A stretch of DNA of 30,932 nt from the IMG/VR virus record IMGVR_UViG_2529293142_000025, positions 1 through 30,932 of that record. The stretch is one strand, 5' to 3'. The translations under genes were made by a program, and so were the position numbers. Positions 336 through 30,932 of the stretch are shown here, one piece after another (the stretch's first letter is position 1; each line of letters starts with the position of its first letter). The notes below the pieces were generated by a model. The model worked only from the letters and a program-made list of their open reading frames with translations. It did not search any database and was not told the origin of the DNA. The stretch is from a virus. Its lineage: Duplodnaviria; Heunggongvirae; Uroviricota; Caudoviricetes.

Positions 336-336
336 A

Positions 337-777: not shown

Positions 778-787
778 TCACTTCCCC

Positions 788-1933: not shown

Positions 1934-1936
1934 AGC

Positions 1937-3996: not shown

Positions 3997-4037
3997 CGGG
4001 TCATCCTTAATGGCCCCGCCAGGGGGCCATATGGCTG

Positions 4038-4979: not shown

Positions 4980-4990
4980 TCGTCTGTTCC

Positions 4991-5416
4991 TTAAATCTTC
5001 CAGGAAATTTCTGCATTGCCGTCAGCATCACCGGCACCTGTGAATTCAGCGTTGGTCAGCACCACGTTTTTGCCACTGACTGACGTGGCCATGAATCCAC
5101 CCAGCGGCACTTTGATGGATTCATCAGTGGAGACGACAACGTATACCGGGTCGCCTTTTTTGATGGTGCTGGCATCAAAATCAGAACCGAGATTAACGGT
5201 CACGTAGCCACGCTTCATTGCGTCGCCCGGGAAGTTCTTGCCACTCCCCACCTGGCGAACCATGTCCGGCTGCGAAGTGGTCGGATAAGGGCGCACATAG
5301 ATCCCCTTCACCTTGTCTGCGGTATCACCATCTGCCAGCGGCACGAAAAAACCGTCATCATCGTATTTACCAGCCAGCCCATAGGCAGCAAAGGCGTTAT
5401 CGGATTTAAGGACCAC
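4991..5416 (-). CDS. phage head protein (decoration/structural-like)
   Basis: 141 aa ORF immediately upstream of capsid gene. Confidence 0.4.
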   Translation of the reverse strand: MVLKSDNAFAAYGLAGKYDDDGFFVPLADGDTADKVKGIYVRPYPTTSQPDMVRQVGSGKNFPGDAMKRGYVTVNLGSDFDASTIKKGDPVYVVVSTDESIKVPLGGFMATSVSGKNVVLTNAEFTGAGDADGNAEISWKI

Positions 5417-5498
5417 CGGTTCGACGGTTAAGTCCTGCGGGCGAGAGACAGCCCGGCAATGCCAACAGGCATCCGGTACAGAAATACATTATTCATTT

Positions 5499-6373
5499 TT
5501 ACCCTTTACGGTTTGCCCAGAATTCGGCGTTTTGTTTGTTCAGGGAAGCGATACTGGTCATGCCCATGTTTGGGCGCTGTGCATCGCCGGTGGTGGCGCG
5601 GGTGTTTCGCCCTTTGGCAATCTCAGACACGGCATTAAACGCCATGTCGACCGATTGTTTCGGTAATTTGCGGATATCCGCATCACCGACTATCTGGCGA
5701 ACCAGCGTTTTGTCAGCAGAAGCCAGAACCTCACGTTTGAACGCGGTCGGTTTCATCTTACGGCTCAGATCAATACCCGGAACAATAACTTCGGCACGCC
5801 AGGCTGCGTCACCAGTAATCGTGGTTTCCTCTTCATCGTCCTCGCCGTCACCGGTCGGATTATCGTCAGGCTTATTATCGTTATCGCCCGTGGCATTTCC
5901 TTCCAGCTTAGCCAGCAGGGCTTTCAGTAATGTTTTGAGGTCATCATCACTGTCGCCGGTTGGGCCTCCCCCATCTCTGGTGCTTTGTCCGGTAGTGGTT
6001 GCTGCGGGGACAGGTTGATATTGAGATTAACGCCCTGCGGCAAATCCCCCTCATCTCCTGTAACCGATGCGGGAGCCGACTCCACCAGTTCGTTCATGGT
6101 GTCGGCATCTCCTGTCTTGATGGCCGCACGCATGCGGTTCCACCAGTTTTTCTTTTGATTTGCCATTGTGTCTCTGTCTCCAATTGCACAACGATTTCCG
6201 GCTCTGCCTTTAGGGACAAGAGCCACATGGTTTCCGGTAATATCGACCTGCTCAGCTTTACCTGGCTCGGTCTGCTCGTACTCCGCGTCATAGCCGCACG
6301 ACACTTCGCGCAGGCCATCTTCGATAAGCTGAATGGCGTTTTCGTCTTTGACGATAAGGTCAGCCAGCATCAA
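5499..6373 (-). pseudogene. head-assembly (scaffold-like) gene with a reading-frame break
   Basis: 149 aa ORF (5924..6373) ends at TGA, but a second frame with an acidic scaffold-like stretch (DNDNKPDDNPTGDGEDDEEETT) is open from 6026 down to 5499 with no start codon before ATG 5756; frames would join with one extra base in the C5 run at 5968-5972. Confidence 0.35.
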
Positions 6374-6717
6374 ATCAGACTGCTCACCGTCCCGCGCCGG
6401 ACATTCTGGAGGTGCCCGACAGCAAGCTCTTTCCAGTTCTCGGGATTTACCAGCCGCACATTCCCGTTTTCATCTTCAGGATGCAGAATCGTGATGCTCA
6501 TCCCTTCGAATGAGGCAAGCGTGGCCGGATGGAATACCTGCTCAGGAGAACGCGTGACGACTATTTCACCGAACTTATCGGGTTTCAGTTTTGGCAGGTC
6601 ATCAGCACCATAGAGCTGCTTACCTGTTCGTCCTATCGGCACGTCTTTGCACAGCAACGAGCCGTCAGCCAGCTGATAGCGGGTTTCCCCCAGCCGGGTA
6701 TTGAAAAAATATTTCAT
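6370..6717 (-). CDS. phage head-assembly protein (may belong to the same gene family as the adjacent ORF)
   Basis: 115 aa ORF, ATGA overlap with the 149 aa ORF. Confidence 0.35.
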
Positions 6718-6731
6718 GTGTTACCTGCGAT

Positions 6732-14929: not shown

Positions 14930-15090
14930 AATGACGCCCTCTGGTGGTTTCTTAATAACTCACCACCGACGACGCCAATCGTCTGGTGGTGAACTGTGCA
15001 GGGTTGGCGTAACCGGGAAACCGACCGGCGCGGATCTCTCCGCCCCCACACAGCCCACCATAATTCAGATGTGCGCGTGCATACGACAAT

Positions 15091-15112
15091 AAAAAACACG
15101 CTCGCGGCGTGT
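15091..15112 (-). terminator. tR-prime-like terminator downstream of late promoter
   Basis: minus-strand hairpin ACACGCCGCGAGCGTGT followed by TTTTTTATT. Confidence 0.5.
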
Positions 15113-15173
15113 ATCTGTCGCGGTCTCTATCCAGGACGCCAATCCCGACGCCAGATTTTGCTGGCGCGTGAGG

Positions 15174-15203
15174 AATATAGCCCCGGATAACAGATTGAGT
15201 CAA
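15174..15203 (-). promoter_or_regulatory. late promoter (pR-prime-like), Q-dependent antitermination region
   Basis: minus strand TTGACT, 18 nt spacer, TATATT; the -35 overlaps the Q stop codon, as in lambda. Confidence 0.5.
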
Positions 15204-15754
15204 CAGACGGTTTTTAGATCCCCGGAAGAGAATGCATCACGCATCGGCAGATAGAGCATAAACTCTGCCATTTTCAACCACGCATCTATGCGATTACGGC
15301 ACGTGGCGTAACACCACTCAGGGTGTGAACCATTCAGCAATTCAGCCATTTTTCGCTTAGTCATCCCCCTCCCTTCATATCGTTGCCGGAGGATACAAAT
15401 CAATCCTGGGTGTTCTGCCAGCACTTCACTAATCACCCGATCAATGCATAACGCCTCTGAATCGGTACAATGTACCAGCCAGCTCTTTTGCTTGCCGTTA
15501 ATCATATCCCGCAAAAAAGCCTCAAGTTCAGGTTTGTCCAGACCTGCTTTTTTCATCCTCCGGAGCGCCTCGTTAATTGCCGTTTTTGTCAGCTTTTTAG
15601 AGGCCAGCAACTGGTTGAACATATTTCCCGTCTTACCGCCGCCAATATACGACCAGCGCCCCCACATGCGCAGTTTTCCCTGAATCCAGACACTTTCCAA
15701 CGTGGTGAGACGAAGGTGTTCCCCGCTTTTGCCTGTATTTGTTGGGTAAATCAT
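15200..15754 (-). CDS. late-gene antiterminator Q-like protein
   Basis: 184 aa from ATG 15752-15754; position at end of nin region directly before the late promoter; the N-terminal extension in the track ORF overlaps the upstream gene. Confidence 0.55.
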   Translation of the reverse strand: MIYPTNTGKSGEHLRLTTLESVWIQGKLRMWGRWSYIGGGKTGNMFNQLLASKKLTKTAINEALRRMKKAGLDKPELEAFLRDMINGKQKSWLVHCTDSEALCIDRVISEVLAEHPGLICILRQRYEGRGMTKRKMAELLNGSHPEWCYATCRNRIDAWLKMAEFMLYLPMRDAFSSGDLKTVC

Positions 15755-16041
15755 AAATAACCTTCCTTTCTCCAGATTTCTTGTGTGCGAAAAACACCTT
15801 CTGCATGCATCAGGCGCAATTCTTCTTTGGTGTAATCGCTGGTTTTTACCCGCCCGTCGATTAAATCGTGGCACGAGCTACAGGCAATCGCTGCCTGCAT
15901 ATCGTGTGGTTTTGTCGCTGTTCCGCACGTCCCCGCCAGCCTGTAATGCGCCAGCACAGATGTTTCGGGATTGTGATTGCAGTAGCCAGGAATTCTGACG
16001 GTGCACATCTGCCCCCGCGCCGCTTTACGTAAATCCACCAT
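15751..16041 (-). CDS. Cys-rich nin-region protein (YbcO/DUF1364-like)
   Basis: 96 aa with several Cys/His (CTVRIPGYCNH...CSSCHDL); stop overlaps Q start. Confidence 0.45.
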   Translation of the reverse strand: MVDLRKAARGQMCTVRIPGYCNHNPETSVLAHYRLAGTCGTATKPHDMQAAIACSSCHDLIDGRVKTSDYTKEELRLMHAEGVFRTQEIWRKEGYL

Positions 16042-16640
16042 TACGCAAACTCCAGCAGCTGCGCGGCCACATTTTCGACTTCCTCCGGAGAGGAGAATTT
16101 ACGGAACAGGATCCAGTTCCACAGCACATTCAGTACGGCTTTATAAACCTGCTGAAACTCGGTTTCGTCCATATTCGCAAAAGCGATGGATTTCGCCCGA
16201 CGCCCGTGGCTACCGTCCGGATAAATATGCTCGGTGTAAAATCCGGCCTGAATGGTTACCCACTCGCGGAAAGCGTCAAACGACTTTAGCAATGCCGTAT
16301 CCCGGGTTCTGCGTGTCGCAACTGTATTCAGATATTGCTCTGCGGCTTCGCTCAGAGCTGGCGTATGTTCCCGGCCTACTGATTCGCACAGATAATCAAC
16401 GAAACCGGACACCAGTTTTCGTTCGCGAGGCGTGATCGCCCCTCCGACTGGAGTCCAGTAATCGAATCCCAGTTGCAGGAGTTTGAAAAAACGCTTGTGG
16501 AATGCGTAGTTACGAACGCGCTTAAAATCAGCGTGTATCCACTCGCCTATTTTGATTTGATGCAGAAAATCGCAACTCTCCGGCGTCGCCGGGAGAAGTA
16601 ATCCGGAAGAGGTTTGTTTGACCAGTTGTATATGCGCCAT
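16041..16640 (-). CDS. nin-region protein of unknown function (DUF1367-like)
   Basis: 199 aa ORF coupled to the downstream gene. Confidence 0.4.
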   Translation of the reverse strand: MAHIQLVKQTSSGLLLPATPESCDFLHQIKIGEWIHADFKRVRNYAFHKRFFKLLQLGFDYWTPVGGAITPRERKLVSGFVDYLCESVGREHTPALSEAAEQYLNTVATRRTRDTALLKSFDAFREWVTIQAGFYTEHIYPDGSHGRRAKSIAFANMDETEFQQVYKAVLNVLWNWILFRKFSSPEEVENVAAQLLEFA

Positions 16641-16711
16641 CGTAGTTCTCCGCTGGCGCAGTAGAATGGGTGTTCAGCCCGTTATGTAGTATACCAGAAT
16701 TAATGCCAATA

Positions 16712-16963
16712 CTAACAGGATGCTCTGACTCGCAATTCATCCAGCAGTTTATCATTTCCCATAATGTCACTTACCCTCATCGGTAAAAAAATTGCCTTTC
16801 GACCATTACGATACATCATTGATTTTTTAGTTTCAGGGAAGTAATCCATTTCGACTATAACTGACAGGTCATCACGACGTATGACTGCATATTTGCTACT
16901 AAATAGTTTCTTTATTTTTTCCACGATGCCTCCAGGTTTATAAGTACAAACGGTTATATCCAC
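16712..16963 (-). CDS. hypothetical protein in AT-rich island
   Basis: 83 aa ORF with GTG start and no clear SD; low GC context. Confidence 0.25.
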   Translation of the reverse strand: MDITVCTYKPGGIVEKIKKLFSSKYAVIRRDDLSVIVEMDYFPETKKSMMYRNGRKAIFLPMRVSDIMGNDKLLDELRVRASC

Positions 16964-17105
16964 ATAGAGACAAAAATATTAATCTGAAAAATATTTATTT
17001 CACGTCGTATATTTGATTATTTAATGTGCAGGTGCAATGACTTTTATTTTTGTTGTGTATATAATCAAATATATGGTTATTTTTCACCCTGCGTATTCAG
17101 CGCGC

Positions 17106-17129
17106 AACAAAAAACCCGCCGAAGCGGGT
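17106..17129 (-). terminator. Rho-independent terminator of hok transcript
   Basis: minus-strand hairpin AACCCGCTTCGGCGGGTT followed by TTTTTTG. Confidence 0.55.
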
Positions 17130-17198
17130 TAAGTGCGGGTGCGTTGAGGATGCCTGACACATCAGAGGTGGCGAGGGATTTCTCCCTCGCCTGGTCTC

Positions 17199-17354
17199 TT
17201 ACTCCTCAGGTTCGTAAGCTGTGAAGACAACGACCTCCGTCTGGCCGGTTCGGATTCGTACCTCGCAGAGGTCTTTCCTCGTTACCAGTGCCGTCACAAT
17301 GACGGTTAAACAGATGACGATCAGGGCGATTAACATCGCCTTTTGCTGCTTCAT
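17199..17354 (-). CDS. hok: Hok/Gef family type I toxin
   Basis: 51 aa MKQQKAMLIALIVICLTVIVTALVTRKDLCEVRIRTGQTEVVVFTAYEPEE; an in-frame upstream mok-like extension starts at 17411; structured leader with inverted repeats at 17451-17490. Confidence 0.8.
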   Translation of the reverse strand: MKQQKAMLIALIVICLTVIVTALVTRKDLCEVRIRTGQTEVVVFTAYEPEE

Positions 17355-17542
17355 AGCCTGCTTCTCCTTGACCTTTCGGTCCGTAAGAGGCAATCTATAT
17401 GTGTCTAGCATATAGGGGCCTCACTTCGATTTATAGTCGGGTGGGGCTTTTATCTATCTGCCGTTGGTGTTCATGCCTGAGGCAGATAGCCTCAAGCACC
17501 CGCAGCAATTCTACTTAACTCTCCTTTTCCCGCAAACCGTTT

Positions 17543-17626
17543 TTATCCCCAGCGGCAAATCGAATACACCACCAGCGCCACCGCCATCGCAATTCCTACC
17601 GTTGTGAATGCTTCAGGCCAGGTCAT
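17543..17626 (-). CDS. 27 aa hydrophobic peptide
   Basis: MTWPEAFTTVGIAMAVALVVYSICRWG; strong SD GGAGGTGA; ATG overlaps the TGA of the upstream gene (ATGA coupling). Confidence 0.3.
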   Translation of the reverse strand: MTWPEAFTTVGIAMAVALVVYSICRWG

Positions 17627-17988
17627 TGATTCACCTCCTGCGGTGGTTCAGGCAACGCTTCCAGTGATGCTTTCACAAACCACGCGGCCTGAACTATTAC
17701 GTCATGAATCCAGCGCAAATCAGCCTCGCGATCTTTCTTTTTCATCTTTTCGCCACTTAAAGCCTGGCTTATGTGGCTGCGAACCAGGTTTTCATGTAAT
17801 TCCTTCGCATCCTCAATGGTGAAACCACCAGGCAGGCGAGCCGGAGCTACCGGAGAGTTGCCAGCCTTACGCATGGCCATTTCCACGATTTCAACCATAT
17901 CTCCTGGTGGAATTTTACAAAGTTGCCCAATACATTTCTGCTGCCTGGCATATTCGAGAATGTGCTCCAGTTTGGTTCGATTAATCAT
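17623..17988 (-). CDS. nin-region hypothetical protein
   Basis: 121 aa ORF coupled to neighbours on both sides. Confidence 0.4.
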   Translation of the reverse strand: MINRTKLEHILEYARQQKCIGQLCKIPPGDMVEIVEMAMRKAGNSPVAPARLPGGFTIEDAKELHENLVRSHISQALSGEKMKKKDREADLRWIHDVIVQAAWFVKASLEALPEPPQEVNQ

Positions 17989-18401
17989 TATTTATCTCCC
18001 TTAAGCATGGCGGCGCGGCAGGCGTTCCAACCATCAGCATATGTTTCAGTTACACCGTCGAGATGGCAGGTAAGCAAATCCATTTCATCAGGCACTACCA
18101 TCGCTGGCGGCGCTGCGTAAAGCGGTGTTATTTCTGCCCGAAAATCACCGACTTTATGCAGTCGCACCCAGCGTTCGGCTTCTGCTTTGTCAGAATACAT
18201 AGCGGTGAACGTATTATATTCATGGTCAATTTGCGTGAAGGTTGCCTTCCACGCCACCGGTTCTGCTTCCAGCGATGCCAGCGCGATACGAAACACATTA
18301 GCAAGCAGGCTGTCTGAAGATTGGTTATCGTGCGCCGCGTCGCTCAGGAAACCAGTGATGAATGATTTAATCTCCGCGTTTTCTCTGAAAATAGTGATCA
18401 T
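17988..18401 (-). CDS. nin-region hypothetical protein
   Basis: about 137 aa from ATG 18399-18401, which lies 1 nt after the upstream stop. Confidence 0.4.
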   Translation of the reverse strand: MITIFRENAEIKSFITGFLSDAAHDNQSSDSLLANVFRIALASLEAEPVAWKATFTQIDHEYNTFTAMYSDKAEAERWVRLHKVGDFRAEITPLYAAPPAMVVPDEMDLLTCHLDGVTETYADGWNACRAAMLKGDK

Positions 18402-18402
18402 A

Positions 18403-18621
18403 TCAGTTCTCCTTATACGGATTAATTTTATTGTGCAGTGTGTTGAACGAGGCCCATACCACGTCGTTATACAATTCAATAACTGGCTCAATTATTTTCC
18501 CGATTACCCAGACAAAAATTAGCGGGGATATCGGTATCATCAACACGATAAACAGAATGAGAAACAAAAATTCTGTCGCTCTACTTTTTCGCGGATATTC
18601 TTTTCTGAATAATGCAGTCAT
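18403..18621 (-). CDS. small membrane protein
   Basis: 72 aa with hydrophobic segment FLFLILFIVLMIPISPLIFVWVIG. Confidence 0.4.
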   Translation of the reverse strand: MTALFRKEYPRKSRATEFLFLILFIVLMIPISPLIFVWVIGKIIEPVIELYNDVVWASFNTLHNKINPYKEN

Positions 18622-18713
18622 TTATTACCGCCCTTTCGGGCGGCCTCCTGATGTTTTGAGGGTGCAGAAATCCCTCCGGTTAAGGATTAAATTTTTAACA
18701 GCGCTAAATTTAA

Positions 18714-19070
18714 TTATTCAGTTCTGGATTTTGTCGCCCTACGTATCCGCGCTTTCGCGTTACGCTCAATCTGAATTAACTTTTCTATATTTTTCCGCCT
18801 TTCTTGCTCCTCCTGGCGCAATAACCTTACATCATCTGCCAGTCTGGTTTCTCTTTTAGCCACAGAGAGCATCCAGTCAAACGGCTCCACAACTGCACCG
18901 CAGATTTTACAGCGGACCTGACGCTCTTTTTCGTCAACCTGGACAGAAGCGTGATGACAATATGGTCTTTCCGATGGCTCATAAAGAAAATTAACCTGAT
19001 TACGCGGGTCATCCTCTTTTACCGGAAATAAAACAATATTACTTAACTCATCTTCTGGTTTTATTCCCAT
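18714..19070 (-). CDS. nin-region hypothetical protein with Cys/His cluster
   Basis: 118 aa from ATG 19068-19070 with AAGGAGAGGAG SD; CHH...C..C pattern. Confidence 0.4.
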   Translation of the reverse strand: MGIKPEDELSNIVLFPVKEDDPRNQVNFLYEPSERPYCHHASVQVDEKERQVRCKICGAVVEPFDWMLSVAKRETRLADDVRLLRQEEQERRKNIEKLIQIERNAKARIRRATKSRTE

Positions 19071-19512
19071 ACTCCTCTCCTTTGATGTGAATGCCAGCAA
19101 CACGTAGTGCATGTTCTAAGTCAGCCAGATAAAGCCAGCAGCCATTTTCTTTAGGTATCATGACGTGGCGCTCATCATCATTTATCGGATGTCCATATCG
19201 AAGGCCGTAGCGAGTCGGCAAATGAACTTCCCGCGCTTCCAGCTCTTTAACACGTTCCTCGAGTTCGTAGACTCTGCATTGTTCTTTATCATCAATCAGA
19301 TATAACCCAAGACATTCGCTTTCTACCCAGCCACCGAAATCATGATCGTAACGCTCACACGAAAACTCACCATCGCTGTCCTTTGTTGGAATGGTGTAAC
19401 TGTCTAATGGGCCGCCATACGTCGGCACATTTCCCAATGTCGGATGCTCAATCCACATGAAAAATGCACGTCCGGTTATAGGACAAATATCTGGTCGCCA
19501 TTGGTTACTCAC
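19048..19512 (-). CDS. nin-region hypothetical protein
   Basis: about 154 aa from GTG 19510-19512, 6 nt after AGGAGG. Confidence 0.4.
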   Translation of the reverse strand: MSNQWRPDICPITGRAFFMWIEHPTLGNVPTYGGPLDSYTIPTKDSDGEFSCERYDHDFGGWVESECLGLYLIDDKEQCRVYELEERVKELEAREVHLPTRYGLRYGHPINDDERHVMIPKENGCWLYLADLEHALRVAGIHIKGEEYGNKTRR

Positions 19513-19804
19513 TGTTTGCCTCCTGGAAAATAACTGCATGCCCCAGTTTCTCCGCCAGCGCCAGTTCTGCCTTAGCACCTGCTGACCGCTGCCAGCCTTT
19601 CAGCATGTAAATCGCATCCACACAACGAATCATTGCCATGCAAATATCCATGTAGTGTGGCTGTGTCAGTCCGTCCGGAAGTACTGCCGGGTTTAAGACT
19701 GTATGCCCTTCCCGTTTCAGTTCCTCTTCCGCCTTGTGGAACGCCTCACGGTTGAAATTTTTATATCCGGTCATTGGACCGGCGATATAGACTCTCACCC
19801 TCAC
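19505..19804 (-). CDS. nucleoside 2-deoxyribosyltransferase-like protein (DUF4406-like)
   Basis: 99 aa beginning MRVRVYIAGPMTG...; family assignment from memory. Confidence 0.4.
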   Translation of the reverse strand: MRVRVYIAGPMTGYKNFNREAFHKAEEELKREGHTVLNPAVLPDGLTQPHYMDICMAMIRCVDAIYMLKGWQRSAGAKAELALAEKLGHAVIFQEANSE

Positions 19805-20229
19805 GCCATCACCTCCTGAAAATTACCCTGATAAAACGCCAACACTCGCTGCATAACCTCACTCTTCCGGCACTCGCGACAGATTATGTTCAGGTGTCTG
19901 TCGTAGCGGCGTATTTCTCCGTCTGGTAACTTTCGAATCAGTGTCTGGTCAGTTGTTTTCTCCGGTGTCTTACGCCATTCACGATACGCCTGCTCTGATG
20001 CAAAAACACCGTATTCCCCGGACATATATAAATCACCACAAGCCAGTACATCCACAAGGCAGCGTCGGACCGAATGCCAGCCAGCTCCCGTCGCTCTCTC
20101 CAGTTGCGACATCGTCATGCGTTCATTTTTGCGTACCAACCCGATAATTCGTGCCTTTAGCTCTTCCCGCTGTTCGGATGTAAAAACTTTTGCCACAAGT
20201 CCTCCTGAAAAATCACCTTCACAATTCAT
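19801..20229 (-). CDS. Ren-like protein
   Basis: 142 aa; C-terminal LNIICRECRKSEVMQRVLAFYQG resembles lambda Ren C-terminus; located directly after the P-like gene as in lambda. Confidence 0.4.
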   Translation of the reverse strand: MNCEGDFSGGLVAKVFTSEQREELKARIIGLVRKNERMTMSQLERATGAGWHSVRRCLVDVLACGDLYMSGEYGVFASEQAYREWRKTPEKTTDQTLIRKLPDGEIRRYDRHLNIICRECRKSEVMQRVLAFYQGNFQEVMA

Positions 20230-20891
20230 ACAAAACCAGCTGCCTTCCGGCGTTCATACTCCCGTTTCAGCAACTCAATTGGTGTTGGCCCCGACGGGCG
20301 TTTTGGTGCTGCCAGTTGCCGCCGTACGGGCGGAACGCTGAAGCCGTCACCAACATGCTTTGCCCATTTCGCTAGTTGCCGTTCTGCAAGTCGTTTTAAC
20401 TCCCCTTCGGTCATCTGGCGCTCAATCCCCTTTGAACGCATCTCGAGGCAAATGTGATACAGCACAGGCTGAGACCACGGGTATTTATCGCTTCCGTCGT
20501 ATCGCCAGGACTCATTGCGCCAGCGGCGGTACTCCTTCATCACAACATCAACCGTCAGACCGAATGGATTGGCTCCGCTTTCCGAAATCAGTGCCACAAA
20601 CTCAGCCAGGTCCGGAGGCCATGTTTCACCCGTCCGGCAGCGGTCCATGCACTGGCGGCAGACCTGTCGGATTTGCTGCTCAGTCATCGCGCCAATCTGT
20701 GCAATCCAGAGCTTCGAAGGTGCGGCCCCGTTCTTCTGGGTCCAGCGGTTCGAATAAATCTCCCCCATGAGTTCCCACAGCTTCCAGGCAGTTTCCGTCG
20801 TTGATAAATCCGTTTTCACGTTCCCACTGCTCACGTGCTGCCCGAATTTCCTGAACTGCCCGTGATGCGGTGCCACCTGGCGCGGCTGCAT
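20226..20891 (-). CDS. replication protein P-like (helicase loader)
   Basis: 221 aa; central and C-terminal similarity to lambda P (..YPWSQPVLYH.. vs ..YPWKSNAHYW..); SD AAGGGGGTGA before ATG 20889-20891. Confidence 0.6.
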   Translation of the reverse strand: MQPRQVAPHHGQFRKFGQHVSSGNVKTDLSTTETAWKLWELMGEIYSNRWTQKNGAAPSKLWIAQIGAMTEQQIRQVCRQCMDRCRTGETWPPDLAEFVALISESGANPFGLTVDVVMKEYRRWRNESWRYDGSDKYPWSQPVLYHICLEMRSKGIERQMTEGELKRLAERQLAKWAKHVGDGFSVPPVRRQLAAPKRPSGPTPIELLKREYERRKAAGFV

Positions 20892-21726
20892 GACTCACCC
20901 CCTTGCTGACTGGTTTAACCTGCGCCCTGACGTGATTTACGTGACGGGCGAATTTCTGCTCCCACTGAACCTGCGTGAACACTTTGCCCTCATCGCTCCA
21001 GTAATCCCGGAAGGCGGCAAGTTCAGCAGGTGTAAATTCCGGCTCCGGCAGAGCCACTCCCCACAGTGCAGCCCGTCGTCGGAAATCCGGCGACGGATTC
21101 CAGCCGGCGGTCATCGGAAATTTTCCGATGGGTTCGCTCAGGCCTTCCAGGTAATCAGGTTCCGTTGCCTGCAACGGCAAACCATTCGACTCACTGACCG
21201 GAGCACTCTCGCGCACGCGCGCGTTATGTGTGGGGTTTAATTCTTTATCTGTATCTTTATCTGTCGTGACTCGTCGTGACATGTCGTGACATATGCGTGA
21301 CTCGTCGCGCGCCCCCTCATTCTGTTTTCGTAATTTTTCCCTCTCGCGCTGCGCTCTCTTGCGCTCTGCCGGGGATTTCGCGGTTTGTGAAACGTTGCCA
21401 TTGTCCTCTTTCAGTACCTGGCGTTTTTCCCATCCACTGATCAAATCTCCATCAAGTACCCGCCCCTGCATTGCCTGTAAAATTGAATCAATTACTTCTT
21501 CCGTCACATCAAGCGCACTTGCTAAATCTTCCGCTGTGACATCAATGTGACCACGTAGTGACACGCCGTGACATGTCGTGACATTTCGTGACGCGCTCAC
21601 CAGAAGGTGGATATACACAGCCATCACTGTTGCGATTGGCTGTCCTGACACCCTGGAAATTGTTCGCCACTTAGGATCGTTTGGCATGTCATGCCATAAT
21701 CTGAGCCAGGCGTTAGCCATACTCAC
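20680..21726 (-). CDS. replication initiator O-like protein with DnaT-like C-terminal domain; 3-prime end uncertain
   Basis: N-terminal HTH/replisome-organizer-like region; FPMTAGWNPSPDFRRRAALWGVALPEPEFTPAELAAFRDYWSDEGKVFTQVQWEQKFAR matches the DnaT C-terminal region from memory; contains two iteron arrays; the ORF overlaps the P-like gene by 212 nt. Confidence 0.55.
   Translation of the reverse strand: MSMANAWLRLWHDMPNDPKWRTISRVSGQPIATVMAVYIHLLVSASRNVTTCHGVSLRGHIDVTAEDLASALDVTEEVIDSILQAMQGRVLDGDLISGWEKRQVLKEDNGNVSQTAKSPAERKRAQREREKLRKQNEGARDESRICHDMSRRVTTDKDTDKELNPTHNARVRESAPVSESNGLPLQATEPDYLEGLSEPIGKFPMTAGWNPSPDFRRRAALWGVALPEPEFTPAELAAFRDYWSDEGKVFTQVQWEQKFARHVNHVRAQVKPVSKGVSHAAAPGGTASRAVQEIRAAREQWERENGFINDGNCLEAVGTHGGDLFEPLDPEERGRTFEALDCTDWRDD
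21233..21301. repeat. iteron array 1 with adjacent AT-rich tract (candidate replication origin)
   Basis: AT-rich TTCTTTATCTGTATCTTTATCTG followed by 4 direct repeats GTCGTGAC with 10 bp periodicity. Confidence 0.55.
21545..21592. repeat. iteron array 2
   Basis: 4-5 direct repeats of nTnGTGAC with 10 bp periodicity, same orientation as array 1. Confidence 0.5.
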
Positions 21727-21791
21727 CTCTTCTGATACCGAATCTTTTTACTCACGAATTGCCGGAAGCGATCCGGTATGAATATTGTCAG

Positions 21792-22217
21792 TCAATGCAC
21801 AACCACAATATTTCCCGCCGGACCACCACGATTCATCTGATTGAAACCAGCGATCGCCACTGCGACAAAATCATCAGCGTCTCTCACCAGTCGTTCCCGC
21901 GTCTCCACCAGCTCCCGAAAATAGGCTGAACTGTGGCTGCGCATTCGGGCCACCAGCAGAGGTGGCATTGCTGTTTCGATCGCTGGTAACAATGCCTGAA
22001 TTTTTTTAACCGCATCAGGGGTGTCTTTCTCCACCCAGCGGAAAATTTTCTGAGTATTGCGAGCCAGGGCTTCCGGATGGCTGTCGTCATACAGTTCTGG
22101 GAACGTCATACCCAGTTCAAAATAAGCCCTGGTTATTTCAGCTGCCGGAACTTTTTCACCGTCCGGATGCGCCCAGGCATTCATCGCCATGCGGATGTGT
22201 TCATGCTTGATTTTCAT
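21792..22217 (-). CDS. ydaT: YdaT-like protein (CII-position gene of Rac-type immunity region)
   Basis: 141 aa beginning MKIKHEHI; position immediately after the cro-like gene. Confidence 0.45.
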   Translation of the reverse strand: MKIKHEHIRMAMNAWAHPDGEKVPAAEITRAYFELGMTFPELYDDSHPEALARNTQKIFRWVEKDTPDAVKKIQALLPAIETAMPPLLVARMRSHSSAYFRELVETRERLVRDADDFVAVAIAGFNQMNRGGPAGNIVVVH

Positions 22218-22482
22218 GAATCAAGCTCCTAGAAAGTGGTTGTGTTAACGTTTTGGTATCTTCCAGCTCGGGCCAAATATTCATCCAATCAAAAGGCCTT
22301 AGTTGCTGACGTGTAACTTCACCATTACTGGCTCGCTCAATAAGGACACATAACGATGCCCCTAACACTTGACCTTTACTCAATGCCTTTCTTAGATAAC
22401 CGATGCTGGTACCACACTCGCATGCAAACATACGCTGTTCATCTGACGAAAGAGAATTGAGAAATATTCTTAATTCTTCCAT
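22201..22482 (-). CDS. ydaS: YdaS-like Cro-type HTH regulator
   Basis: 93 aa with HTH-like CGTSIGYLRKALSKGQ; divergent from repressor gene. Confidence 0.5.
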   Translation of the reverse strand: MEELRIFLNSLSSDEQRMFACECGTSIGYLRKALSKGQVLGASLCVLIERASNGEVTRQQLRPFDWMNIWPELEDTKTLTQPLSRSLIHENQA

Positions 22483-22499
22483 AGCTACTCCTTAGTAAA

Positions 22500-22582
22500 C
22501 ACAGCAAAGAATACCTGCAGGTAAACAAAAGTCAATACCCACAGGTTGTTTACCTTGCAGTAATCGCATCTATTATTTACCT
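22500..22582. promoter_or_regulatory. divergent promoter/operator region between ydaS-like and racR-like genes
   Basis: inverted half-sites GGTAAACAA (22520-22528) and TTGTTTACC (22546-22554) within flanking inverted repeats CCTGCAGGTAAACAA / TTGTTTACCTTGCAG. Confidence 0.5.
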
Positions 22583-23001
22583 ATGGACAAATATGAATTT
22601 AGACGACAGCAACTCATCAAAATTCGTGATGAGAAATGCGATGGTAAAGCGGTTAACGTGGCCAGAAAGATCGGGCGCGAGCCTTCTTATGTATCAAGAA
22701 TGTTGTACCCAGAGGGGAAAAAGGGAAAAAACGGATCGCTGATGATATGGTGGAGATTATCGAAGAGTCCTTTGGGTTACCCCGGGGATGGATGGATGGT
22801 ATCGTTTCATCATCAACGAACACAGCCTCCAGTTATGAAACAAGGGTTCTAACGCCACGACAACGTATTTTTTTAGATCTCTTAGACGAACTGCCAGAAA
22901 GTGAAGCGGATAACTTATTAAAAACTCTTGAAGAGAAAAAACAGTATTACAATATGATCTACGAAGAAATCCGTAAAAAGAAAGCACAAAACGCATCATA
23001 G
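22583..23001 (+). pseudogene. racR: RacR-like prophage repressor, split by a frame break in an A-run
   Basis: ORF 22583..22852 carries the N-terminal HTH (VARKIGREPSYVSRML) then decays into non-protein-like sequence; ORF 22747..23001 carries the C-terminal part and is open upstream without a start; frames join with one extra A in the A6 run at 22726-22731. Confidence 0.55.
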
Positions 23002-23045
23002 CTCACCAAACAACTAGTCACCAGTTAAGACACCGCAAAAAATTT

Positions 23046-23080
23046 ACCCATAGGTATTTACTTTTTAAATACCTATGGGT
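23046..23080 (+). terminator. perfect 15 bp inverted repeat downstream of racR (terminator or protein-binding palindrome)
   Basis: ACCCATAGGTATTTA-CTTTT-TAAATACCTATGGGT followed by T-rich ATCCTTCTTTTC. Confidence 0.35.
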
Positions 23081-23260
23081 ATCCTTCTTTTCATACCAAC
23101 TCACCCCGCTCCACAGAATGCAGGGCAATACTTCGAGTTACCAGGCAGTGGTCAGGGGTTAAGTAGCCAGCCCGAGGCATACGAACATGACGGCAGTTGT
23201 TGATTGATACAAAGCGCAGTAGATAAAACGTTCCGCCACCCGGCGTTAAGGGGAAAAAAG

Positions 23261-23479
23261 ATGGTTGGTGAAGATCTGGTTGTTATTAACGGTCAATTGT
23301 GCAGCAAAGATGTGGCAGCCATGCTTATTAGCAAGGTTCTTCCAACTGTGCTGGAGGTCATTGCAGAAAAAGTAAAGGCTGGTCGTCCAGACAAGGAAGT
23401 TGAAGAGGCGGCAAAAACAGTTGTTCATGCCGCTACAGAAGCAATTATTTTGAAGAGCCTAGTTTCGCCCAAGCCTTAA
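23261..23479 (+). CDS. small hypothetical protein (YdaF/YdaG-position)
   Basis: 72 aa from ATG 23261 with AAGGGG SD. Confidence 0.35.
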   Translation: MVGEDLVVINGQLCSKDVAAMLISKVLPTVLEVIAEKVKAGRPDKEVEEAAKTVVHAATEAIILKSLVSPKP

Positions 23480-23639
23480 GTGAATCGGAGCTTTTTTTAG
23501 CATCACGTTCATTAAGTAGTGACAAAAACTCATTCTCAGCATTCTCGATTTCCGAGAAAAATTCTTGATGAGTTGTTTCTCGCTGCGATCTGATGCTGAA
23601 AGCTAAAGCAAGTAGCCAGGCTTTGTCTTTATTATCCAT
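23445..23639 (-). CDS. hypothetical small protein in sieB-position region
   Basis: 64 aa ORF, no clear SD; convergent with the preceding gene. Confidence 0.2.
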   Translation of the reverse strand: MDNKDKAWLLALAFSIRSQRETTHQEFFSEIENAENEFLSLLNERDAKKSSDSLKAWAKLGSSK

Positions 23640-24044
23640 CGGAATACCTTATTACTGGTTGTGTGAGAACTCCAGTATACCACCGAGCCTGAAGTGGTAA
23701 AAAGACAGGCGCACAACACGAAGGCGCACGGAGGAGGTGTTTTTCCCTTAGAAGGCTTGTCGTTAAACTTCTTCGACCGTGCGCTTCCGGTTGTGAATAA
23801 CAACACTGCTGTGTGTAGTCTTGGTGGCATCAGTTTTTTCTTGAAGTTCGACTGATGTCCGCCCTTTTTAAAGTGAATTTTGTGATGCGGTGAATGCGGC
23901 TAAGCGCACGCGGCACAGTTAAAAGTCATGTTAGTCCTTATTGGTTTGGGTGGGAAAGCCGACTGTAATTGTTAACTGGTTGCAGTCACCTGGAGGCACC
24001 AGGCACCGCATCAACAAAGTTCATTTGTAAAAATGGAGATAATT

Positions 24045-24266
24045 ATGATTGCACATCACTTCGGAACTGATGAAATACCACGTCAGTGTGTGACTCCTGG
24101 TGATTATGTTCTTCATGAAGGCCGGACATATATCGCCTCGGCAAACAATATTAAAAAGCGAAAACTTTATATTCGTAACCTGACTACAAAAACATGCATT
24201 TCTGACTGCATGATTAAAGTCTTCCTCGGTCGTGATGGTTTACCTGTAAAGGCGGAGTCATGGTGA
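24045..24266 (+). CDS. kilR: KilR, FtsZ-targeting killing protein of Rac-type prophage
   Basis: 73 aa [32 protein letters not shown]...; GGAG SD 7 nt upstream; matches KilR as recalled. Confidence 0.7.
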
Positions 24267-24436
24267 TGACTAAGAAAATAAAATGTGCTTACCACCTTTG
24301 CAATAAAGGAATTGAAGAAAGCAAAAGCATTAAAAGACCACTTCATTTCATGCGTGGAGTTATCCCAACGACGGAAATGAAAAAATATTGTAGTGAAAAT
24401 TGTGCCGAAAAAGACCAGATGGCACACGAACTTTAA
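24266..24436 (+). CDS. ydaE: YdaE, small Cys-rich zinc-binding protein
   Basis: 56 aa [56 protein letters not shown]; start overlaps kilR stop (TGATG); below ORF-track cutoff. Confidence 0.6.
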   Translation: MTKKIKCAYHLCNKGIEESKSIKRPLHFMRGVIPTTEMKKYCSENCAEKDQMAHEL

Positions 24437-24509
24437 TTAACTGACTATGCGAAACTGAATTTATGCCAGCAATGGCAGGGATTCGCTCAACCTTAATTAA
24501 GGAGAAAAA

Positions 24510-24785
24510 ATGATTACCAATTATGAAGTCACTGTTGTAACTACCGATGACATTGTTCACGAGGTTAATCTGGAAGGAAAGCGTATTGGCTACGTGATTA
24601 AAACAGAAAATAAAGAAACCCCATTCACTGTGGTTGATATTGACGGTCCATCAGGCAACGTAAAAACACTTGATGAAGGTGTCACAAAAATGAGTCTGGT
24701 TCACATCGGAAAGAATCTGCCCGCAGAAAAAAAAGCCGGATTTCTGGCAACTCTGATTGCAATGAAATTAAAAGGTGAAATCTGA
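24510..24785 (+). CDS. racC: RacC
   Basis: 91 aa MITNYEVTVVTTDDIVHEVNLEGKRIGYVIKTENKETPF...; matches RacC as recalled. Confidence 0.65.
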   Translation: MITNYEVTVVTTDDIVHEVNLEGKRIGYVIKTENKETPFTVVDIDGPSGNVKTLDEGVTKMSLVHIGKNLPAEKKAGFLATLIAMKLKGEI

Positions 24786-24883
24786 AAAAAGAAAGCCTGC
24801 ACAACGTGCAGGCCTGAGTGAAGAACCTGGGACATTTATTCATCACTCGCAGTAATTTTAATCTGAGTTGAGGTTAAAAAACA

Positions 24884-27535
24884 ATGAGCACAAAACCACT
24901 CTTCCTTTTACGGAAAGCGAAAAAATCATCCGGTGAACCTGACGTCGTCCTGTGGGCAAGCGACGATTTTGAATCAACCTGTGCCACTCTGGACTACCTG
25001 ATCGTTAAGTCAGGTAAAAAACTGAGCAACTATTTTAAAGCTGTTGCCACAAATTTTCCTGTCGTTAATGACCTTCCCCCTGAAGGTGAGATCGATTTTA
25101 CCTGGAGTGAACGCTATCAACTCAGCAAAGACTCCATGACCTGGGAACTAAAACCGGGAGCAGCGCCAGACGACGTTCACCATCAGGAGGATGCACCGGA
25201 AACCGAAGAAGCGACGGGAGGCCAGGAAGAAAACGCGCAGGCAGACGCCCACGAGGATTGCCAGGATTGCGAAGTCTCTGTAGCCACTTTGCGGTTCACA
25301 CAGCGTCTTCTGCACATTTTTACGTATGCAGCCGGGGATCGAAAATACCTGCATCATGCCACCCGTGAACAACGCAAACACATTACTGCTCTTGAGATGG
25401 ATCAGGAAAACAGCTATGTCCAGAATCTGCTGTTGGCCATACGCAGCATGGCAGAACCGACAACTCTGGATAATGCCGCCCTGCTCCGCCTGACTGATGC
25501 AATTAAGGCAGTGTTCTCTATCACGAAAAAACATCAGCCCTATGAATTTAAGAATTTCATTTCAGCCTGGCTGGATACCGAACACATTGATCGCGGTCTT
25601 CTGACAAAAGAATGGCGAAAAGGGAATCGTGTTTCACGCATCACTCGCACGGCTTCCGGTGCTAATGCTGGCGGCGGGAACCTCACCGATCGCGGCGAAG
25701 GTTTCGTCCACGATCTGACATCACTGGCGCGCGATGTAGCCACTGGCGTACTGGCCCGTTCAATGGACGTGGACATCTATAACCTTCATCCGGCACACGC
25801 TAAACGCATTGAGGAAATTATCGCTGAAAATAAACCACCCTTTTCTGTTTTCCGCGACAAATTCATCACCATGCCTGGCGGGCTGGATTATTCCCGCGCC
25901 ATCGTGGTTGCGTCCGTGAAAGAAGCACCAATTGGGATCGAGGTCATCCCCGCACACGTCACTGAATATCTGAACAAAGTACTGACTGAAACCGATCATG
26001 CCAACCCTGATCCGGAAATCGTGGATATTGCCTGCGGTCGCTCCTCGGCCCCGATGCCGCAACGAGTAACAGAAGAAGGAAAACAGGACGATGAAGAAAA
26101 ACCACAACCATCTGGCGCAATGGCAGATGAACAGGCAACGGCTGAAACAGTGGAACCGAATGCAACTGAACATCATCAGAACACGCAGCCGCTGGATGCT
26201 CAGTCACAGGTAAATTCTGTTGATGCGAAATATCAGGAACTGCGGGCAGAACTCCATGAAGCCCGGAAAAACATTCCATCAAAAAATCCTGTCGATGCCG
26301 ATAAATTGCTTGCTGCATCACGTGGTGAATTTGTTGACGGAATTAGCGACCCGAACGATCCGAAATGGGTTAAGGGGATCCAGACTCGCGATTCTGTGTA
26401 CCAGAACCAGCCAGAAACGGAAAAAATCAGCCCGGATGCGAAACAACCTGAGCCAGTAGTGCAACAGGAACCGGAAATAGTCTGCAATGCCTGCGGTCAG
26501 ACTGGCGGGGATAACTGCCCTGACTGTGGTGCGGTGATGGGCGACGCAACATACCAGGAAACATTCGGTGAAGAGAATCAGGTTGAAGCTAAGGAAAAAG
26601 ATCCGGAGGAAATGGAAGGCGCTGAACATCCGCACAATGAGAATGCTGGCAGCGATCCGCATCGCGATTGCAGTGATGAAACTGGCGAAGTCGCAGATCC
26701 CGTAATCGTAGAAGACATAGAGCCAGGTATTTATTACGGAATTTCGAATGAGAATTACCACGCGGGTCCCGGCGTCAGTAAGTCTCAGCTCGATGACATT
26801 GCTGATACTCCGGCACTGTATTTGTGGCGTAAAAATGCCCCCGTGGACACTACAAAGACAAAAACGCTCGATTTAGGAACCGCTTTCCACTGCCGGGTAC
26901 TTGAACCGGAAGAATTCAGTAACCGCTTTATCGTAGCACCTGAATTTAACCGCCGTACAAACGCCGGAAAAGAAGAAGAGAAAGCGTTTCTGATGGAATG
27001 CGCAAGCACAGGAAAAACGGTTATCACTGCGGAAGAAGGCCGGAAAATTGAACTCATGTATCAAAGCGTTATGGCTTTGCCGCTGGGGCAATGGCTTGTT
27101 GAAAGCGCCGGACACGCTGAATCATCAATTTACTGGGAAGATCCGGAAACAGGAATTTTGTGTCGGTGCCGTCCGGACAAAATTATTCCTGAATTTCACT
27201 GGATCATGGACGTGAAAACCACAGCGGATATTCAACGATTCAAAACGGCTTATTACGACTACCGCTATCACGTTCAGGATGCATTCTACAGTGACGGTTA
27301 TGAAGCACAGTTTGGCGTGCTGCCAACTTTCGTTTTTCTGGTTGCCAGCACAACTGTTGAATGCGGACGTTACCCGGTTGAGATTTTCATGATGGGCGAA
27401 GAAGCAAAACTGGCAGGCCAGCAGGAATATCACCGCAATCTGAGGACCCTGGCTGACTGCCTGAATACCGATGAATGGCCAGCTATTAAAACGTTATCAC
27501 TGCCCCGCTGGGCTAAGGAGTATGCAAATGACTAA
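24884..27535 (+). CDS. recE: exodeoxyribonuclease VIII (RecE), C-terminal PD-(D/E)XK nuclease domain
   Basis: 883 aa; long acidic/disordered N-terminal and central region; C-terminal domain ...[34 protein letters not shown]...[14 protein letters not shown]...[16 protein letters not shown] matches the RecE nuclease domain. Confidence 0.85.
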
Positions 27536-28336
27536 GCAACCACCTATCGCAAAAGCCGATCTGCAAAAAACCCAGGGAAACCGTGCACCAGCAGCAGTAA
27601 AAATAACGACGTGATCAGCTTTATTAATCAGCCATCAATGAAAGAGCAACTGGCAGCAGCTCTCCCACGCCATATGACGGCTGAACGAATGATACGTATC
27701 GCCACCACAGAAATTCGTAAGGTTCCGGCGCTAGGAAACTGTGACACCATGAGTTTTGTCAGTGCGATCGTTCAGTGTTCACAGCTCGGCCTTGAGCCAG
27801 GTAGCGCCCTCGGCCACGCATATTTACTGCCTTTTGGTAATAAAAACGAAAAGAGCGGTAAAAAGAACGTTCAGCTAATCATTGGTTATCGCGGCATGAT
27901 TGATCTGGCTCGCCGTTCTGGTCAAATCGCCAGCCTGTCAGCCCGTGTTGTCCGTGAAGGTGACGAGTTTAGTTTTGAATTTGGCCTTGATGAAAAGTTA
28001 ATACACCGCCCGGGAGAAAACGAAGATGCACCAGTGACCCACGTCTATGCTGTCGCAAGACTGAAAGACGGAGGGACTCAGTTTGAAGTTATGACGCGCA
28101 AACAGATTGAACTGGTGCGCAGCCAGAGTAAGGCTGGTAATAACGGGCCATGGGTAACTCACTGGGAAGAAATGGCAAAAAAAACGGCTATTCGTCGCCT
28201 GTTTAAATACCTGCCTGTCTCAATTGAAATCCAGCGTGCAGTATCAATGGATGAAAAGGAACCACTGACAATCGATCCGGCAGACTCCTCTGTATTAACC
28301 GGGGAATACAGTGTAATCGATAATTCAGAAGAATAA
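27528..28336 (+). pseudogene. recT: RecT single-strand annealing protein, frame broken in an A-run near the 5-prime end
   Basis: ATG 27528 (overlapping recE stop) encodes [28 protein letters not shown]-stop (27612-27614); the main ORF 27611..28336 (VISFINQPSMKEQLAAALPRHM...) is in the next frame; one extra A in the A5 run 27599-27603 restores ...AAVKNNDVISFINQ... Confidence 0.8.
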
Positions 28337-28380
28337 TTCAGCCTGGCGGTGTAATGCACCGCCAACGTGAGACAGTTTTT

Positions 28381-28587
28381 ATGACAAAAATTATGAGATA
28401 TGACGATGTTAAACCATGTCCGTTTTGTGGTTGTCCATCTGTTACAGTGAAAGCAATTTCAGGATATTACCGGGCAAAATGCAACGGATGCGAATCCCGA
28501 ACTGGCTATGGTGGAAGTGAAAAAGAAGCACTCGAAAGATGGAATAAACGAACTACTGGAAATAATAATGGAGGTGTTCATGTATAA
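28381..28587 (+). CDS. ralR: restriction alleviation protein RalR/Lar-like, Cys4 zinc-ribbon
   Basis: MTKIMRYDDVKPCPFCGCPSVTVKAISGYYRAKCNGCESRTGYGG...; start at internal ATG 28381. Confidence 0.6.
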   Translation: MTKIMRYDDVKPCPFCGCPSVTVKAISGYYRAKCNGCESRTGYGGSEKEALERWNKRTTGNNNGGVHV

Positions 28588-28768
28588 AATAACTGCCACT
28601 ATTGAAAAAGAAGGTGGCACTCCTACTAACTGGACAAGATATTCAAAATCTAAATTAACGAAATCAGAATGCGAAAAAATGCTCTCAGGGAAAAAAGAAG
28701 CAGGCGTGTCCAGAGAGCAGAAAGTAAAGCTGATAAATTTTAATTGCGAGAAACTTCTGTCCTCGTGA
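28580..28768 (+). CDS. ydaC: YdaC-like small protein
   Basis: 62 aa MYKITATIEKEGGTPTNWTRYSK...; GGAGGTG SD 5 nt upstream. Confidence 0.55.
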   Translation: MYKITATIEKEGGTPTNWTRYSKSKLTKSECEKMLSGKKEAGVSREQKVKLINFNCEKLLSS

Positions 28769-28868
28769 GTTGCATTATATACAAATTAGAACTTCATAGC
28801 TGATTATTAAAAATCAACCACACCCGCCAGTATTCTGTATATTTACTGGCGGTCATATCGTAAGAGGT

Positions 28869-29156
28869 ATGGCAATGAATCTTGTGACACTCAAAACGTG
28901 GGGAAAACTCAGATATCCGGATAACCCACCATCAATATCAACGCTGAGACGATGGGCAAGGAATGGAAACATTTATCCTGCACCTGAACTACACGGGAGG
29001 AGTTACAGGGTGGTTCCGGAAGCTTTCTATATCAACCCAAATAAGGTTGATACCGATATAACACACCATCAGCCTAATGGGCGACAAGGGAGAGACAGTC
29101 CGTTACTGGAGAAGTTAAAACATGCAGCGGAAAAAATACGATCCCAATTTACCTAA
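28869..29156 (+). CDS. xis: excisionase (lambda Xis-like)
   Basis: ...LVTLKTWGKLRYPDNPPSISTLRRWARNGNIYPAPELHGRSYRV resembles lambda Xis; overlaps int start by 35 nt as in lambda. Confidence 0.6.
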   Translation: MAMNLVTLKTWGKLRYPDNPPSISTLRRWARNGNIYPAPELHGRSYRVVPEAFYINPNKVDTDITHHQPNGRQGRDSPLLEKLKHAAEKIRSQFT

Positions 29157-30198
29157 AAACTTAACATATCGAAGGAGGGACAAAGCATATTACTGGCGCA
29201 ACCCTCTGACGAAAGAAGAATTTACACTAGGTAAAATTTCAAGAAGAGATGCAGTAGCGCAGGCAATTGAAGCAAATCATTATATATACAAAAACTACTC
29301 TCCTGCTGCCTTAATTGAAAAACTAAAAGGGTTCGACTCATTTACTATGGCAGACTGGATTGAACGTTACAAAACGATTCTTATAAGGAGAAAAGTGTCC
29401 AGAAATACTTATAAAATTCGGGTAAATCAACTGGAGACAATAAAAGAAAAATTAGGAGGGGTTTTACTGACAGAAATAACCACTCGCCATATTGCCGAGT
29501 TTCTTGATTTGTGGATTGAAGGAGGGAAAAACACGATGGCAGGATCAATGCGTTCTGTGTTATCTGATATGTTCCGCGAGGCCATTGTTGAAGGACGTAT
29601 ATCTCAAAATCCAGTAACGCCAACAAGAGCACCGAAAATAGTAGTTACAAGAGAACGGCTGAAACTAAAGACATACAACTGCATCAGGGAGGCAGCAGAT
29701 CAACTTCCGACATGGTTCCCATTAGCTATGGACTTAGCCCTTGTAACAGGACAACGTCGCGAAGACATAACAAATATGCGGTTCAGTGAGATTTATGATG
29801 ATCGTCTCCACATCAGGCAAATTAAGACAGGAATGATGATTGCTATCCCCCTGTCACTCAGCCTTCCTGTCGCTGGTTTACGACTTGGTACAGTAGTTGA
29901 ACAGTGCCGCATGGTAAGTAGGGGGGATTATCTAATCAGTGCCGGGATTAGAAAAAACAGCCCTGACGGCAGCATTCACCCGGACGGCCTGACAAAGAAA
30001 TTTGTCGCAGCCAGAAAATTAACAGGTATCCAGTTCAGTGAAAACCCACCAACTTTTCACGAGATCAGAAGCCTGGCTGGACGATTGTACAAAGAAACAT
30101 GTGGGGAAGAATTTGCTCAACGTCTACTTGGCCACACATCGGAGAAGACAACAAAAATGTATCTTGATGAGAGAGAAAAAACGTACTTACTGCTCTGA
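29122..30198 (+). CDS. int: tyrosine integrase, lambda Int family
   Basis: 358 aa; N-terminal arm-binding-like [27 protein letters not shown] and C-terminal ...[15 protein letters not shown]...[15 protein letters not shown] align with lambda Int including the catalytic region. Confidence 0.85.
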
Positions 30199-30245
30199 TT
30201 TTAACGTAAATGGATTGTTAAATGTGTTTTGGTTGTGATATAACC

Positions 30246-30348
30246 AAAAAAGACCGGAATACAGAAATTCGAGTAAATTTCGAGTAATTTCGGGGAGACG
30301 TTTGCAACTAATTGATTTTAAATACAATTAAAAAAAGACCGAATACGA
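30246..30348. repeat. imperfect direct repeat AAAAAAGACCG(G)AATAC (30246-30263 and 30330-30348) flanking 11 bp tandem TTCGAGTAA units; candidate att core/arm sites at the prophage junction
   Basis: the second copy is the 3-prime half of the SdsR terminator; the first lies 86 bp toward int. Confidence 0.4.
30301..30328 (+). promoter_or_regulatory. sigma-70 promoter for RyeA
   Basis: TTTGCA, 16 nt spacer, TACAAT. Confidence 0.45.
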
Positions 30349-30432
30349 TTCCTGTATTCGGTCCAGGGAAATGGCTCTTGGGAGAGAGCCGTGCGCTAAA
30401 AGTTGGCATTAATGCAGGCTTAGTTGCCTTGC
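30330..30432 (-). ncRNA. sdsR: SdsR (RyeB) small RNA
   Basis: about 103 nt on minus strand starting GCAAGGCAACUAAGCCUGCAUUAAUGCC..., ending in hairpin GACCGAAUACAGGAAUCGUAUUCGGUC plus U7; sigma-S-like -10 TCTATTCTTAA just upstream; identity from memory. Confidence 0.6.
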
Positions 30433-30561
30433 CCTTTAAGAATAGATGACGACGCCAGGTTTTCCAGTTTGCGTGCAAAATGGTCAATAAAAAGCGTGGT
30501 GGTCATCAGCTGAAATGTTAAAAACCGCCCGTTCTGGTGAAAGAACTGAGGCGGTTTTTTT
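30336..30561 (+). ncRNA. ryeA: RyeA (SraC) small RNA, antisense to SdsR
   Basis: plus-strand transcript predicted from the TTTGCA/TACAAT promoter to the terminator at 30521-30561; fully overlaps sdsR on the opposite strand. Confidence 0.45.
30521..30561. terminator. bidirectional Rho-independent terminator (RyeA on plus, yebY on minus)
   Basis: hairpin AAAACCGCC...GGCGGTTTTTTT with U-tracts on both strands. Confidence 0.55.
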
Positions 30562-30590
30562 ATTGGAAATCAAAAGGCTATTTTAGGTAA

Positions 30591-30932
30591 TTAACAGAGT
30601 TTTTCAGCTCGTTCTATAAACGGTGCCAGACTCATTTTTTCGCCGGGATTGTTAGGATCATCAATCTGAATCACCGAAATGGGTTGGGCTTTAGTCTTCC
30701 CACTGGCAACTTCCTTTTGTGCGATATCGTTTAAAGGATACTGCACGAGGGTACTTGGGTTGATGACATACAAAGCATTACCCGGTCGGCAAGTCAGCAT
30801 CACCTCTTCGCGATTAAACGCCCATTTGTCTTTACCCACTTCAAAACGGCTGACGGTAATCACCTGCGGTGCAGCCAGCGCCGCTGCAGAACTGGTGAGT
30901 AACAGAAACGCCAGAATACTTTTTTTCATCAT
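30591..30932 (-). CDS. yebY: periplasmic protein YebY (signal peptide), chromosomal flank
   Basis: 113 aa with N-terminal signal peptide [20 protein letters not shown]; start codon at the window edge; gene neighbourhood ryeA/sdsR-yebY as in E. coli (from memory). Confidence 0.55.

Follow-up and report, generated by a model that had tools for sequence, protein, structure and literature searches.

A missing A near the 5' end of a prophage recT: a probable homopolymer undercall in a draft assembly

The recE-recT locus and its split recT

The window, i.e., the whole stretch of DNA that was analysed (30,932 nucleotides of the IMG/VR virus record IMGVR_UViG_2529293142_000025), comprises at its right end the early-left part of a lambdoid Escherichia coli prophage of the Rac-like kind, which adjoins the chromosomal gene yebY. 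The genes found there are recE, recT, a Lar/RalR gene, xis, a tyrosine integrase gene (29122-30198) and, on the minus strand, yebY, and the same order as in the window is annotated in E. coli E2865 (kilR, ydaE, recE, recT, ralR, a DUF1187 gene, excisionase, integrase and yebY). The layout is that of a Rac-type recET operon, with recE directly 5' of recT, a recT start overlapping the recE stop and a Shine-Dalgarno (SD) sequence placed within recE. The features of the locus are as follows:

24884..27535, plus strand: recE (exodeoxyribonuclease VIII), an intact ORF of 883 aa with its stop TAA at 27533-27535
27515..27520, plus strand: SD of recT, AAGGAG, within the 3' end of recE and 7 nt upstream of the ATG
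27528..27614, plus strand: recT 5' fragment, with the native ATG, 28 codons and a premature TGA at 27612-27614
27599..27603, plus strand: A5 run, the apparent frameshift site, A6 in all near-identical genomes
27611..28336, plus strand: recT body, 241 codons from GTG 27611, containing the whole RecT domain

The product of recE matches the Pfam families Exonuc_VIII (E=2.4e-67) and DUF3799/PDDEXK (E=2.4e-27). It carries private substitutions, and an exact copy of it was found only in three NCBI assemblies; two of the recE substitutions, at 25211 and 27065, are private to the clone of the window. In another Rac-like prophage (L027), recE encodes 866 aa, compared with the 883 aa found here.

The first-pass annotation of this DNA had described an ATG overlapping the recE stop that opens a frame of 28 codons, followed by a RecT body in another frame and devoid of an SD of its own, and both descriptions are borne out by the coordinates, the ORF list and the anti-SD duplex energies. 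The ATG (27528-27530) lies in the recE stop region and is preceded by an SD whose duplex with the anti-SD reaches -8.6 kcal/mol, and the first 25 codons of the fragment that it opens are identical to those of annotated RecT. The body, in frame -1 (= +2) relative to this ATG, matches the Pfam family RecT (PF03837) with E=9.3e-57 and 192 bits (cut-off 24) over residues 25-216, covering profile positions 1-187 of 198, and RecT also aligns to the Listeria RecT structure 7UB2 (E=9.5e-15; residues 15-248 of the full-length protein). Neither of the two internal start codons considered is preceded by an SD, the anti-SD duplex being worth 0.0 kcal/mol at GTG 27611 and +1.2 kcal/mol at ATG 27638. The GTG and the premature stop (TGA 27612-27614) overlap as GTGA, with two bases in common.

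It had also been proposed that one additional A at 27599-27603 would restore a continuous RecT, and this proved correct: once one A is added, the translation reads ...AAVKNNDVISFINQ... and is identical to the annotated 269-aa RecT of strain E2865 (WP_000166317.1). The frameshift is thus confirmed as a fact of the deposited sequence. The continuous frame from the native ATG, corresponding to the 269-aa E. coli allele, is interrupted in the window and present in the three assemblies that share its RecE. The difference between A5 and A6 is one of a single base, to which a chance test does not apply. No record was returned on look-up for the 241-aa product starting at the GTG, and the literature searched on the N-terminus of RecT offered no usable data.

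Run lengths in same-clone and complete genomes

Is the A5 run found anywhere else? Compared with E2865 over 7,155 nt, the window shows eight substitutions and two one-base indels, the first of which is the recT A-run (A6 in E2865, where recT encodes 269 aa) and the second an additional T in the integrase gene, at 30187. The A-run appears as a single gap at this site in the comparisons with E2865 and with the near-identical genomes L002, L004, L012, L013 and L014. Among 5,426 complete E. coli genomes, recT was found in 1,752 with a query of 951 nt, and the best 40 of these 1,752 matches all span 952 nt in the record. The 91-nt context of the A5 run has an exact match in none of the 5,426 (0/5,426), and is found at 98.9% identity in 149 genomes, each match listed spanning 92 nt, that is, one extra base. 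The A5 context is likewise absent from the GTDB species-representative genomes (exact 53-mer scan) and from the JGI metagenome contigs (exact 31-mer scan).

The closest comparison is provided by GCA_002133845.1, GCA_012710875.1 and GCA_000225185.3 (AFDY02, L014), which were found by their exact RecE protein and are referred to here as the same-clone assemblies. Over positions 14886-30932 of the window (16,047 nt), these three show 0 substitutions with respect to it, and only run lengths differ. The recT A-run is A6, and a 269-aa RecT is called, in 3/3 of them. The 381-aa tail protein of the window is exact in a few assemblies only, led by the same three together with the Logan assembly of SRR6061347, and the comparison of these four with positions 1-8803 reveals four one-base deficits in the window plus one substitution (5807), and nothing else. 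In total, about 24.85 kb of the window are comparable to the same-clone assemblies, and they contain six private indels, each of them one base missing from a homopolymer; in the same 24.85 kb, the window has no private insertion and one substitution. Apart from the recT run, the deficits and their consequences are the following:

5452..5454, minus strand: C3 run, as against C4 in the relatives and in every same-clone assembly; interrupts the head cement gene (168 aa)
5496..5500, minus strand: T5 run, T6 elsewhere; located in the spacer that separates the stop of the 406-aa gene from the ATG of the 168-aa gene
5968..5972, minus strand: C5 run, as against C6 in the same-clone assemblies; interrupts the Pa193_gp24-like head gene (406 aa)
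6387..6388, minus strand: C2, C3 elsewhere; second break in the 406-aa head gene
17047..17051: T5 run, T6 in all three same-clone assemblies; hok-region spacer
4991-5416, 5499-5756, 5924-6373 and 6370-6717, minus strand: window ORFs, fragments of the two head genes

Three of these five non-recT deficits interrupt two head genes, the 168-aa cement and 406-aa Pa193_gp24-like genes, which are whole in all four assemblies (the three same-clone ones and that of SRR6061347) and fragmented in the window into ORFs of 141, 85, 149 and 115 aa; for the 115-aa fragment no record was returned on look-up. The four extra bases of the 5452-6388 segment are also present in ten more distant relatives and in all eight complete-genome matches listed. 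The four deficits and the substitution at 5807 (C versus A) are clustered within 1 kb (5452-6388), which looks like a low-quality patch of the assembly, and the run at 17047-17051 is another probable undercall, outside any well-supported gene.

Two other run-length differences were considered as errors of the window and rejected. The first concerns the A-run at 22726-22731, in the immunity region, for which the window agrees with AFDY02 (A6), the other two same-clone assemblies having A7. This run lies upstream of an 84-aa ORF (22747-23001), and A7 opens a 139-aa ORF from 22583, so that A6 could have been taken for a window error splitting the 139-aa gene. Nevertheless, A6 and A7 each occur commonly in independent genomes, and the 84-aa ORF is called widely; the tract is either truly polymorphic or often miscalled. 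The second is the T insertion at 30187, which is shared with the less closely related assemblies L002 and L004 as well as with the three same-clone assemblies and is therefore a real allele. The extra T (30187-30188) results in an integrase of 358 aa, versus 371 aa in E2865, and changes only its extreme C-terminus.

All same-clone contigs end or diverge at about 8527-8876, at the portal/terminase junction. In contig 34 of AFDY02, the portal gene is followed by another terminase, of 540 aa, with a Terminase_2 small subunit, in place of the Terminase_3-type gene seen in the window. A near-identical structural module seems to be shared by two prophages of the genome, and the join of the window across the portal/terminase repeat could be either correct or chimeric.

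Origin of the A5 run

The A5 run is very probably a homopolymer undercall of a true A6 in a draft assembly, and not a real feature, because the same-clone assemblies have A6 and the window presents a string of similar deficits. In other words, a homopolymer indel is seen here that otherwise identical genomes lack, and further errors of the same type and direction are found in the same assembly (5454, 5500, 5972, 6388 and 17046). A read error is favoured over a mutation due to the near-zero number of substitutions and to the six homopolymer losses in the same direction, three of them in two adjacent essential head genes. Homopolymer losses in one direction, together with almost no substitutions, are a known signature of undercalling by flow-based platforms (454 or Ion Torrent). 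The A5 would stem from reads of an error-prone technology, which was most likely 454 pyrosequencing, and would have passed from them into the assembly, in which case the recT of the organism would most likely be a normal 269-aa gene with its own SD and with an ATG that overlaps the stop of recE. The frame of 28 codons (the 'uORF') and the RecT body without an SD would then be consequences of one missing base and not a biological arrangement.

The read platform behind the window was, we infer, most likely 454. The strain of the window may well be that of AFDY02, in an earlier assembly, and the A6 at 22726 that is common to both fits with this. The AFDY genome project was based on 454 Titanium FLX reads and a Celera 6.0 assembly (PMC3491183). 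Resequencing of the A-run and an alignment to reference recT, suggested by the first-pass annotation, have in effect been carried out by others, as three otherwise identical assemblies have A6 and an intact recT.

The 5' end of recT is evidently a recurrent site of miscalls, since the lesions found there differ from locus to locus and several of them belong to error-ridden assemblies. Thus, 26 blocks of the collection contain a truncated recT call of 232 aa (the ATG-start product 27638-28336), and each of the other nine loci examined has a different lesion near the recT 5' end. These are mostly one-base changes in short runs (G4, C2, A7, A3, and A5 in the first A6 run), in addition to one A lost between CCC and GGG and one 11-bp deletion, and several of these loci sit in assemblies that are visibly error-ridden, with recE and the integrase gene shredded as well. 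Short runs are abundant in this part of the gene (A4, A6, C3, G3, A3 and A6). The 11-bp deletion, found in the Logan assembly of SRR33317924 (L009) at ~918-925 (= window 27523-27533), eliminates the ATG of recT together with the stop codon of recE. As no homopolymer change is involved, this may be a genuine lesion at the junction of recE and recT, in an otherwise close relative.

The evidence that counts against an undercall comes from SRR057628. Over 4,331 nt, its Logan assembly (L008) shows no mismatch with the window, and it too carries A5, which means that A5 is supported by the majority in at least one read set. Should these reads stem from a platform free of homopolymer bias, the A5 of that isolate would be genuine. 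Nonetheless, to judge from the assembled sequence, the SRR057628 reads appear unreliable in homopolymers, given that L008 has A5 at 29952-29957, where the window has an A6 run. Moreover, SRR057628 may be the very data behind the window, and the two A5 calls are for that reason perhaps not independent.

Were the A5 nonetheless real, the simplest explanation would be a frameshift private to the strain, in which one A was lost from A6 in the isolate or in a laboratory stock, leaving a fresh prophage pseudogene with, at most, a weakly expressed and N-terminally truncated protein. In keeping with it, the SRR057628 assembly is otherwise identical to the window and shares the A5, homopolymer runs are also true mutational hot spots, and the recET genes of prophages are dispensable and commonly decay. 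Even so, such a frameshift is unlikely: A6 is found in three same-clone assemblies that differ from the window by no substitution in 16 kb, A5 occurs in none of the complete genomes, and the five additional private deficits, of which three hit essential head genes in the space of 1 kb, form, along with almost no substitutions, the pattern of read errors and not that of mutation. Less probable still, and by a good deal, is that A5 is real and RecT is nevertheless produced, either at full length by slippage or as 241 aa by reinitiation, as leaky suppression of a fresh frameshift.

How could RecT be made from A5? Two speculative routes may be envisaged. By reinitiation, a real A5 would give a 241-aa RecT without the 28 N-terminal residues, which lie outside the Pfam domain and partly within the stretch that is aligned to Listeria RecT 7UB2. 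By slippage, the tRNA-Lys in the P site would move back one base with the rare codon AUA waiting in the A site. That either of them constitutes a functional recoding or coupling device (GTGA reinitiation or -1 P-site tRNA-Lys slippage) is the least credible of the readings considered, despite a stop and a GTG that overlap by two bases and a -1 slip on A-AAA-A that gives AAA-AAU-AAC and reproduces exactly the wild-type reading ...VKNND... (in E. coli, tRNA-Lys is prone to slip and AUA codons are rare). It presupposes a real A5, and the site, GUA AAA AUA, holds no tandem slippery heptamer X XXY YYZ and would allow P-site slippage only. In addition, there is neither a downstream structure (27604-27690, 87 nt, folding at -16.2 kcal/mol with z = -0.39) nor an SD-like stimulator upstream as judged by anti-SD pairing, nor an SD for the GTG, and the shifted arrangement is conserved in no relative, the near-identical genomes all having a single in-frame ORF.

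The suggestion that RecET recombination would depend on reinitiation at GTG 27611 can accordingly be followed only in part. A reinitiation-type geometry of the ATGA/GTGA kind (GTG 27611-27613, TGA 27612-27614) does appear in the sequence and fits the proposal, but the dependence itself is most likely moot, because the three same-clone assemblies have A6 and the window contains five further deficits of the same kind.

Implications and comparison with known systems

The split recT is mainly a quality flag: the assembly of the window under-calls homopolymers about once per 4 kb, and any frameshift, split gene or 'pseudogene' in it, such as recT, the head cement gene or the Pa193_gp24-like gene, needs to be checked first against the same-clone assemblies. 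If the A5 were true, its consequence would be modest: in this strain alone, the RecT of a prophage recET operon would be lost or attenuated. It would also provide a small natural test of reinitiation or slippage.

Among the known systems, programmed -1 frameshifting, as in dnaX (A AAA AAG) and in the transposases of insertion sequences (IS), has in common with the window an A-run on which tRNA-Lys may slip and a full-length product; unlike these examples, the site in the window has no heptamer, stem-loop, SD-like element or conservation. The likeness to undercalls of 454 and other flow-based platforms is more extensive, including one base lost from a homopolymer in a change that is absent from the same-clone assemblies, further deficits of like kind and direction with almost no substitutions, and a same-clone project documented as 454 Titanium, whereas the difference lies in the repetition of A5 in a second assembly of one read set. 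Finally, the locus shares with the recE-recT operon of Rac and Rac-like prophages the order kilR, ydaE, recE, recT, ralR/lar, DUF1187 gene, xis and int, as well as a recT ATG that overlaps the recE stop. It differs from them in its A5, instead of A6, at 27599-27603, in the position of the prophage next to yebY and in a recE of 883 aa. With one A restored, however, the RecT of the window is the annotated 269-aa protein WP_000166317.1, and the underlying biology is that of an ordinary, already known recET operon.
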